Of a stretch of DNA of 64,000 bases, positions 51,927 to 52,934 are shown piece by piece. This DNA is from Candidatus Heimdallarchaeota archaeon (GTDB lineage Archaea > Asgardarchaeota > Heimdallarchaeia > Heimdallarchaeales > Heimdallarchaeaceae). The DNA is taken from the NCBI GenBank assembly GCA_030603365.1, contig JAUVXV010000001.1, forward strand, positions 1 through 64,000, in the 5' to 3' direction. The notes under the pieces are model-generated. The model made no database searches and was not told the DNA's origin. It saw nothing but the letters and a program-made list of their open reading frames with translations. A program made the position numbers and the translations under genes. Position 1 is the stretch's first letter, and every line of letters starts with the position of its first letter.

Positions 51927-52003
51927 TGGTGATTGAACAGGGATTTGAACCTAAGCTCTTTTACTCCTGAAACAAAAATCGTACCAAACTAGACTACTAA
52001 ATC
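51927..52003 (-). pseudogene. Degenerate tRNA-like gene (Pro-like body, anticodon CAG, short variable loop); CCA encoded
   Basis: Reverse complement GATTTAG-TA-GTCTAGTTTGGTACGAT-T-TTTGT-TTCAGGA-GTAAA-AGAGC-TTAGG-TTCAAAT-CCCTG-TTCAATC-A-CCA; one acceptor-stem and two T-stem mismatches. Confidence 0.75.
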
Positions 52004-52046
52004 TGCGTTACGCACGTTATGAAACTTGGTTAAACTTGCAAGAGGC

Positions 52047-52053
52047 TTTATAA
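52047..52053. promoter_or_regulatory. TATA-like box between the tRNA-like gene and the structured element
   Basis: TTTATAA, near-palindromic, in a ~60-nt divergent spacer. Confidence 0.35.
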
Positions 52054-52066
52054 CCGTCGTTTAAGT

Positions 52067-52395
52067 GGATCCCCTCACGTGCGTTGAGGGGAAGGGATCA
52101 TGAGGATTATGAGGGAGTGGAGAAGAATCGGAGTTTGCACGTGCTCCAGCTTCTTTACTACTCTTGTGCATAGTGCGTCTTGGTTCTGTTGATACTAACT
52201 GAGGGGCAGTTGTTTGAACAACTGCGAACCAAGCTATAGGTGAGTGTTCACCCAGCACTACTCTCTTATTCACACTTTCATATGTAAACTCGTGAAAAAG
52301 ACCGTCCCATTAGGTGCACTAACTCATCCGTGCTTGTATCCGATTACACAGGTAGTAGAACGCTAATGGTAAGATTGAACAAGTTTTCACCCTTC
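52067..52395 (+). ncRNA. Candidate large structured ncRNA of unknown family
   Basis: GC-enriched, no credible ORF, about 10 nested helices; G-U wobbles favour the + strand. Confidence 0.6.
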
Positions 52396-52475
52396 AGTTG
52401 CCTATGGTTTAATTCTCTCTAAATATTTTTTATGTTCTGCACCTATCTTGTAAATCCTTCCCTAAATATTTTATA

Positions 52476-52934
52476 CCTTCAATTGGTGCTAAAACTCTAT
52501 TACTATTGGAATCTAATAGTCAGGTTTATCTTGCTGCTCTCGTGAATATGTCCTTTGTCGCACAAGAAATTAGTAGATTAACTGCAAAGATTACTTCTGA
52601 TATAATACTTATTCCAGCTGGTTATCATGATGATGACGATAATTATACTCTTGAAGATTGGATAACAGCTGTGATTCTAGCTGAAAAGATTTCAAAAATG
52701 ACTTCATATCAAATAGAAGTCAAAGATGATTTTTGGAAGAGAACCCAAACAATTCTTAAGAATCAAACAAAAATTGAAGATCTTCTTAAAAACTCAAAAA
52801 ATGGCATATATTTACAGAAACTAGGATTTGAAAATGATGTTAATTTCTCTATTTCTTTAGATAAGATAAACAATTTTTTGAAAGTGAAAAAATGGCAGAA
52901 TTTCAATGGTTTAAGATGTGTAGAACTAGAATAA
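52476..52934 (+). pseudogene. 5'-truncated 2-phosphosulfolactate phosphatase (ComB)-like gene
   Basis: Only the C-terminal half is present (YLAALVN..VA, IPAG...LED, SKNGIYLQKLGFENDV.F); in-frame stop at 52410-52412. Confidence 0.6.

Follow-up and report, generated by a model that had tools for sequence, protein, structure and literature searches.

A protein-less IS607 mini-element of the Heimdallarchaeaceae with a predicted minus-strand guide RNA and a module shared with the tnpB reading frame

A 396-bp unit at positions 52010–52405 of a 64,000-nt window (the whole stretch of DNA analysed here: positions 1 to 64,000, forward strand, of contig JAUVXV010000001.1, GenBank assembly GCA_030603365.1, Candidatus Heimdallarchaeota archaeon) is almost certainly, judging from sequence, a protein-less, non-autonomous IS607 derivative of the Heimdallarchaeaceae (hereafter the mini). 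Its minus strand very probably encodes a guide RNA of the TnpB type (omegaRNA), and we put the overall reading, a non-autonomous IS607 element and a guide RNA expressed from it, at a probability of about 0.7. Elements of this kind are already known; the new part is a structured module of the RNA that is also embedded in the coding sequence of tnpB. A preliminary description of the locus had proposed an ornate plus-strand RNA at 52067–52395 and had suggested an undescribed Asgard noncoding RNA or a non-autonomous mobile RNA element. The first suggestion holds in that the RNA is structured, conserved and absent from Rfam, but it appears to be a transposon guide RNA rather than a free-standing one; the second holds in that the unit is mobile and non-autonomous, but it is a DNA transposon derivative expressing an RNA, not a mobile RNA.

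The mini-element and its full-size relatives

The sequence starting at 52010 occurs at eight sites in its own genome; of 30 further genomes from the family, 25 have it as well, and the named genomes among the matches were Heimdallarchaeota. Three of the copies in its own genome extend into 2.7-kb elements carrying TnpA and TnpB-like genes, both on the minus strand. With these full-size elements the mini has in common both ends (the left end, 52367–52403, included), the GT core, the ACCGT target motif and the tnpB promoter. When 91 right ends were compared, 40 were preceded by the 3' end of tnpB and 51 were not. A model of the minus-strand RNA (R1), with which the mini at 52010–52262 scored 263.6 bits, was run over 151 Asgard genomes; matches were confined to two genera of the element's own family, with up to 16 per genome. 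Viral contigs searched with the element gave zero matches. The parts of the element and its predicted RNA are:

52010–52405, minus: whole mini including both core dinucleotides; ends shared with 2.7-kb elements and with minis in variable flanks
52010–52262, minus: predicted transcript without guide, an omegaRNA-like scaffold of ~250 nt; start placed 20–25 nt below the TATA box
51990–52009, minus: predicted guide, comprising 6 nt of tRNA leader and the 5' end of a decayed tRNA-Pro; role suggested by TnpB systems
52010–52017, minus: 3' strand of the pseudoknot, pairing with loop 52077–52084; its last two bases, GT (52011–52010), are the right core
52022–52041, plus: subterminal repeat of the right end with two AAACTTG units, 10 nt apart, an imperfect inverted copy of 52367–52386; likely candidate TnpA sites
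52025–52062, minus: stem P8 of the right-end scaffold (52050–55 with 52028–33 plus an outer 4 bp)
52070–52092, minus: hairpin P7 (52085–91 with 52071–77), whose loop 52078–84 forms the pseudoknot
52097–52113, minus: hairpin P6, degenerate in this copy; tblastn match to the TnpB C-terminus
52116–52159, minus: hairpin P5 (outer helix, internal loop, GGAG/CUCC, 10-nt loop)
52171–52260, minus: 5' domain closed by P1 (52255–60 with 52171–76), holding P2 (52248–52 with 52240–44) and the module
52179–52233, minus: conserved module, P3 (52226–33 with 52179–86) stacked on P4 (52219–25 with 52206–12)
52281–52299, minus: archaeal promoter predicted from motif, TATA-like TTTACATA (52288–52281) with a conserved upstream element
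52300–52366, no strand: variable, unstructured spacer from left end to promoter, most of the 3' domain of the preliminary description
52367–52403, minus: left end with subterminal repeat
52404–52408, minus: motif derived from the target and adjoining the left end; reads ACCAT here against the consensus ACCGT

TnpA of the full-size relatives is a 197-aa IS607 serine transposase (NF033518, 158 and 167 bits; cut-off 110) with an N-terminal MerR-like helix-turn-helix and a serine recombinase domain (PF00376 and PF00239); it is intact in two of the genome's own copies and broken in one. No Y1 transposase was found in the genome, and an IS200/605 identity was rejected on this ground. A C/D-box RNA was also rejected because the boxes were unconserved among copies, and a sigma-70 promoter scan was uninformative, the host being an archaeon.

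The TnpB-like gene (640–650 aa, PF07282) lies downstream of tnpA and reaches into the right end; one such gene is at C14:340819. Its product scored under the curated TnpB cut-offs, which points to a divergent clade. The best solved match by sequence was Cas12f1 (E 3.6e-6), and the predicted fold (mean predicted local distance difference test, pLDDT, 86.8), which has a large helical lobe, matched Cas12f best (E 1.4e-9) and the IS607 TnpB 8iaz with E 5.6e-8. The RuvC-I Asp and RuvC-II Glu are invariant, whereas the RuvC-III Asp is replaced by His in 34/34 TnpBs, giving D-E-H in place of the D-E-D triad. Relatives of this TnpB occur in Thor, Odin and Hermod genomes, and its clade divides into several dozen clusters at 50% identity. 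Five proteins of 830–1780 aa from Thor-, Odin- and Hermodarchaeota (P0149, P0156, P0158, P0175, P0150) match it in several separated stretches, suggesting much enlarged TnpB/Cas12-like proteins. Genome G000 also has at least 14 further PF07282 matches that belong to different TnpB families, several of them ~425 aa long and one within a 735-aa frame, even though no Y1 transposase could be found.

The ends of the element were defined by sharp limits of conservation on the plus strand, AC at one end and directly after ACGGT at the other. Removing the element while keeping 5 (or 2) of the terminal bases restored the host frame in 9/9 informative cases, and eight empty ogt homologues were compatible in register with 5 retained bases only. 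Consequently, the target in the tnpB sense is ACCGT, with the core GT at both junctions; the ACCGT logo was partly built into the search pattern. No target duplication was seen, and a single dinucleotide is shared by the two junctions, as in IS607 elements; GT stands in place of GG, which is a trend of the IS607 family and not its defining chemistry. The copy studied here departs from this in its left core, which reads AT and so mismatches the right one. In CboIStron, an IS607 element with a TGGG/GG target and core logic, mismatched cores abolished excision (10.1101/2023.11.20.567912), and by this analogy the present copy is probably immobile; it is also slightly decayed. Seven of the nine interrupted host frames (L012, L037, L060, L061, L142, L144, L153) run opposite to tnpB, so that guides there would be antisense to the host gene.

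The predicted minus-strand RNA

In full-size elements the promoter motif of 52281–52299 recurs ~20 nt before the start of tnpB, which suggests a transcript from about 52262 to 52010 that would run on into the flank. The region 52010–52262 folded with z-scores of −4.28 on the minus and −2.74 on the plus strand, and in 13/13 other copies the minus strand was again the better folded. Within the two core helices, G-U exceeded A-C cells by 60:7 on the minus strand, an asymmetry which argues that selection acts on the RNA. The copies fall into two families, A and B, with different outer scaffolds. Across 16 family-A copies, 96.9% of cells were paired and 18 cells carried two-sided changes, with 0/500 shuffles as high and slid controls at ~40% paired. 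The spacer between left end and promoter was unstructured in the same elements.

The CACGTG loop of P7 and the final 8 nt of the element pair to form a terminal pseudoknot. Compensatory variants of this pairing were seen both among the 91 ends and in homologues at 32–55% protein identity, and one pair of P8 occurs as U-A, U-G and C-G. The final codons of tnpB in full-size elements overlap P7, and the 3' strand of P6 is derived from the 3' end of tnpB. The scaffold ends exactly at the right end of the element, and in the 91 ends the flank becomes variable directly after the invariant end. Together, the fold, the G-U bias, the covarying pseudoknot and the variable flank liken this RNA to a TnpB omegaRNA, for which pseudoknotted scaffolds are known (PMC11061315, PMC13639567). 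No second genomic targets beyond chance 2-mismatch matches were found for the eight guides of this genome. A mutual-information scan was dominated by the split between families A and B and returned zero new pairs. By inspection, no covariation was seen between the CCCUCAG strand of the inner module and the left end or right-end hairpin.

All helices and repeats named in the preliminary description are present at the positions it gives, as is the GC-enriched island (0.43–0.46 vs. 0.33). Conserved helices with compensatory changes among them are TAGTGC/GCACTA, GGTGA/TCACC, CTTGGTTC/GAACCAAG, GCAGTTG/CAACTGC and GGAG/CTCC, and CCCCTCA/TGAGGGG is conserved and nearly invariant. The lack of a recognisable family was borne out as well: Rfam was empty over the element (E up to 10 at the locus and up to 5 at four homologous loci), its intron models found no group I/II (or IStron) core, and the signal recognition particle and RNase P models RF01857 and RF00373 were unmatched at the locus, the real genes lying at C14:291610 and C1:492966. 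The limits and the strand did not hold. The region 52067–52395 leaves out 57 nt that carry the partner strand of the CACGTG loop and folded with z −1.81 on the plus strand (4/100 shuffles as good) vs. −2.95 on the minus strand, and the G-U wobbles said to favour the plus strand are private changes of this copy. The proposed closing helix GAAGGG/CCCTTC has 6/6 pairs here only and 1–5 in 19 other copies, and the 3' domain (z +1.46, and ~0 in other copies) is promoter, spacer and left end. Of the two palindromic loops, the first is the conserved pseudoknot loop and the second, at 52137–44, exists in this copy only; the ACTACTCT repeat invoked for a conformational switch is likewise unconserved and restricted to this copy. 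The kissing-loop multimer gives way to pairing in cis, with compensatory changes, between the loop and the RNA's own 3' end.

The inner module, tnpB and the form of the guide

We have little doubt that the module is a real RNA element common to minis and tnpB. From P4 it continues into a 19-nt strand, 52205–52187 (minus), beginning CCCUCAGUUA, and the stacked helices together with this CCCUCAG strand recur in tnpB codons 283–298, ~1,030 nt upstream of the pseudoknot. When tnpB genes were compared with a profile of the inner domain, nearly every one gave a weak match at one fixed site, ~1,110 nt from the right end, where the sequence reads UUC-RCA-stem-UGU-CCCUCAGUUA, the same motif in the same sense as 52228–52196. 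In the mini's own genome, the six matches to the module pattern with 7/7 stem pairs were three minis and three tnpB genes, and there was one chance match. Overall, 39/40 pattern matches lay inside the element or its contig-truncated remains, and the named genomes were those of Heimdallarchaeota or an unclassified archaeon.

Selection on the module was also visible within the reading frame. Among 34 tnpB genes (mean 70% identity), the module surpassed every other window in synonymous conservation (p 0.0015), the known overlap at the right end included (p 0.0065). It was the top folding outlier relative to synonymous recoding in 11/12 tnpB genes at 29–66% identity, 5.4 standard deviations below the mean window, and in distant genes GCA/UGU was kept while the sequence of the inner stem was rewritten. 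The length of the 19-nt strand was kept in 37/38 mini copies, and the module is present in both outer scaffolds, A and B. Closure of the helix stacked on P4 comes from upstream in close tnpB genes and from downstream in minis and some distant genes (L208, L209, L215), which indicates a junction kept under permutation. Raised synonymous conservation at codons 248–260, 311–320 and 331–340, flanking the module, suggests an RNA domain of ~280 nt within the gene.

What the module does is less certain. In a protein-less element, only transposition, guide function or reduction of harm can sustain selection, and the mini promoter, placed 30 nt before the module, leaves no need for a processing signal; membership in the TnpB-bound scaffold is then the simplest role, to which we give an even chance from sequence comparison. 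A whole-gene consensus fold, made without constraints, suggested a connection between module and pseudoknot in the tnpB mRNA: codons 317–321 pair in it with codons 631–637 over a span of 960 nt (94% and 98% compatible). This helix starts ~55 nt after the module, adjoins both modules and resembles P5 of family-A minis, making P5 its candidate counterpart. In single-gene ensembles such pairing was the top partner of the tail in 6/16 genes, including three at 32–36% identity. Based on these models, a long-range helix that docks the module on the pseudoknot is possible to likely.

Under the mechanism we propose, TnpA from an intact copy (C14 or C16) would excise and insert the mini in trans by serine recombination at GT. 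The promoter would yield an RNA of ~270 nt, the last ~20 nt being a flank-derived guide. TnpB supplied in trans may load this RNA and target ACCGT plus guide, which is the empty site, and repair would restore the element; if the D-E-H site does not cut, TnpB would bind the empty site. The scaffold would consist of two parts, a 5' module (P3/P4 and the CCCUCAG strand) and the 3' pseudoknot. The first of these would reside, in full-size elements, in the tnpB mRNA, docked by the helix between codons 317–321 and 631–637, such that one transcript could act either as mRNA or as guide. Minis would have deleted the rest of tnpB and fused both parts into a natural single guide. In a further-reaching reading, to which we give somewhat less than even odds, the large Asgard D-E-H TnpBs may use a split guide, with the mRNA (or two trimmed pieces of it) serving as guide RNA and minis as evolved single-guide fusions.

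Several observations weigh against these proposals. The copies are mutually related, and their counts overstate independence. The His at RuvC-III leaves cutting uncertain, and changes from Asp to His at this site have been catalogued and are thought to be probably active (PMC10691335). Ranking by energy did not significantly set the long-range helix apart (global best in 0/27 close and 1/9 distant genes), and family B minis have no counterpart of P5. Consensus folding of 12 distant tnpB genes in register did not recover the module hairpin, whose loops and bulges shift. Minis L136, L149 and L154 lack all or part of the module, its stem is broken in the L146 tnpB, and distant genes (L205, L212–L215) show erosion of the CCCUCAG strand. 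The module motif also lies within a conserved protein helix, so its conservation is partly protein-driven.

The best-surviving alternative, which we nevertheless consider unlikely, is that the mini RNA is an ordinary stand-alone omegaRNA. Its scaffold would be the right-end pseudoknot alone (~95–130 nt), and the module a separate cis-regulatory element of the tnpB transcript, acting on stability or processing or as a site at which TnpB, TnpA or a host protein sets expression, and retained in minis as a stabiliser of their RNA. The known IS607 right-element RNA (reRNA) scaffold, 187 nt and self-contained (PMC11061315), fits this explanation, as do the existence of module-less minis and the moderate support for the long-range helix. 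However, minis have their promoter ~30 nt before the module, which would make a processing signal redundant, yet the geometry of the 19-nt strand is kept in two unrelated scaffolds; moreover, the long-range helix with the best support begins ~55 nt past the module.

An improbable alternative is that the mini RNA acts as a decoy or regulator, titrating TnpB through the module that TnpB uses on its own mRNA, or directing DNA binding without cutting, the D-E-H protein being a repressor. The invariant RuvC-III His, the same-sense motif in both mRNA and mini, and the up to 16 model matches in one genome would suit such a role. On the other hand, the conserved D-to-H change is read as probably active (PMC10691335), the guides are random flanks without a second genomic target, and the ends and the target motif have been retained, as they are in mobile elements. 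Largely refuted, and very improbable, is an inner fold that is a neutral tnpB remnant left by internal deletions, or a DNA-level feature, without functional RNA: P6 and module do resemble tnpB sequence and this copy is decaying between two pseudogenes, but two-sided changes, the G-U bias, the unstructured spacer of the same elements and the synonymous constraint in tnpB contradict it. Next to no chance is left for a plus-strand ribozyme or ornate RNA (kissing-loop or switch) that protects host transcripts or multimerises, since, although CUGAGGG-stem-GAA resembles a hammerhead core with similar spacing and a varying position N7, and most interrupted host frames run on the plus strand, hammerhead A9 is G in 36/37, the stem II closing pair is A-C in 27/38, stem I is absent, G5 and G8 variants occur, Rfam has no match, and palindrome and repeat are unconserved. 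The hammerhead was accordingly rejected on its CUGANGA core, G10.1-C11.1 pair and stem I, and a hepatitis delta virus (HDV) reading of the plus strand on a would-be catalytic C that varies to U.

Returning to a non-autonomous IS607 element with its own guide RNA, the mini is comparable to protein-less elements that encode stand-alone trans-acting omegaRNAs (PMC10691335) and to the omegaRNAs of palindrome-associated transposable elements (PATEs; 10.1101/2023.03.14.532601). As in these members of the systems called OMEGA (for obligate mobile element-guided activity; TnpB/IscB), there is no protein, the transposon ends and a flank-derived guide are present, and transposase and nuclease would act in trans. 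Unlike these elements, the mini has serine-recombinase (IS607) ends rather than Y1 ends and its own copy of the tnpB promoter, and its 5' module has its twin ~1 kb upstream in tnpB instead of in the last 150–250 nt. It resembles CboIStron and ISFba1 (RAGATH-18 reRNA, PDB 8iaz; PMC11061315) in a core shared by both junctions, a pseudoknotted scaffold that ends in the core, and a target motif that abuts the left end and terminates in the core. It differs from them in core and motif (GT and ACCGT vs. GG with TGGG, AGGAG or GAGGG), in its ~640-aa TnpB with an enlarged helical lobe and D-E-H site, and in having neither a group I intron nor an Rfam RAGATH-18 match. His replaces the third catalytic Asp clade-wide in the RuvC-III-rearranged (RIIIr) TnpB clades too (PMC10691335), but RIIIr-4, linked to a MazE-like gene, has no zinc finger, whereas the present clade has an HxxC/CxxC finger and is linked to a serine TnpA.

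Cas12f and Cas12b use two-part guides consisting of a trans-activating CRISPR RNA (tracrRNA) and a CRISPR RNA (crRNA), and Cas12c/d use scoutRNA. If the split-guide model holds, a short duplex would similarly link a 5' scaffold piece with a 3' piece that bears the guide, and Cas12f is among the closest solved folds to this TnpB. The likeness is one of analogy only, as a CRISPR array is absent and the 5' piece is effector coding sequence on the same transcript. A split guide would stand, as a natural intermediate, between omegaRNAs in one piece and paired tracrRNA:crRNA guides. It would also account for a right-end scaffold that may, on its own, fail to activate these TnpBs, and would bear on the origin of two-part Cas12 guides and on the sharing of a transcript between mRNA and guide. 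The mini can be viewed as an evolutionary deletion experiment in which the ends, the promoter and the right-end pseudoknot survived along with one mid-tnpB module, and these retained parts point to an RNA element within a nuclease gene, one that omegaRNA searches focused on ends would overlook. A literature search, mostly without subscription papers, found no description of a coding-embedded module, a bipartite scaffold or an Asgard IS607 TnpB. The mini also offers a ready reagent for an unstudied 640-aa His-type TnpB, including for the question of whether D-E-H cuts: a scaffold of 250 nt, a guide boundary and ACCGT as the predicted motif.

Insertion locus and derivative copies

The element is inserted 6 nt upstream of a tRNA-Pro, within the tRNA leader. 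The orthologous locus is empty in 24/24 congeners and carries an intact tRNA-Pro(CGG) in 21/24. Two pseudogenes flank the element:

51927–52003, minus: decayed tRNA-Pro(CGG); anticodon now CAG, with mismatched D, T and acceptor stems
52484–52934, plus: 5'-truncated remnant of comB (2-phosphosulfolactate phosphatase), flanking context; Pfam PF04029 positions 108–223 only

The decayed tRNA-Pro differs from its closest orthologue at 14/77 positions, approximately the divergence of the neighbouring protein gene. Three paired changes in its acceptor stem (G-C to A-U or U-A) preserve pairing, and the D and T stems are broken. It was the sole BLAST match to the orthologous tRNA-Pro in the 89%-complete assembly, for which ARAGORN called zero tRNA-Pro. 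Three congeners (L072, L078, L083) have lost the tRNA-Pro or show it decayed without carrying the element. A link to tRNAs like that of GOLLD, as earlier suggested, was not supported: the neighbouring tRNA is decayed with the element inserted in its leader, other complete copies in the genome are not beside called tRNAs, and a GOLLD/ROOL-type RNA is contradicted by the absence of an Rfam match and of a consistent tRNA association. Distant solo tnpB genes L205, L207, L208, L209 and L211 adjoin tRNA genes; for L208 and L209 a tRNA-Asn lies just upstream, and by eye the guide region resembles its 3' end. The comB remnant is missing ~120 N-terminal codons relative to the 272-aa orthologous frame, the loss falling directly after the promoter region, and comB is deleted or rearranged in some congeners too.

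Shorter derivatives of the mini were each seen in one copy: L136 without P4 and the 19-nt strand, L149 without most of the domain, and L154 without all but the right end. In L115 (G025:C21), a tnpA remnant and an intact tnpB are preceded, at ~2214–2352 nt from the right end, by a mini inner domain that has no right end of its own, which suggests a composite or recombinant element. Isolated pieces also occur in genome G000, namely a 28-bp right-end tip at C14:115077–115104 and a left end at C17:16811–16856.
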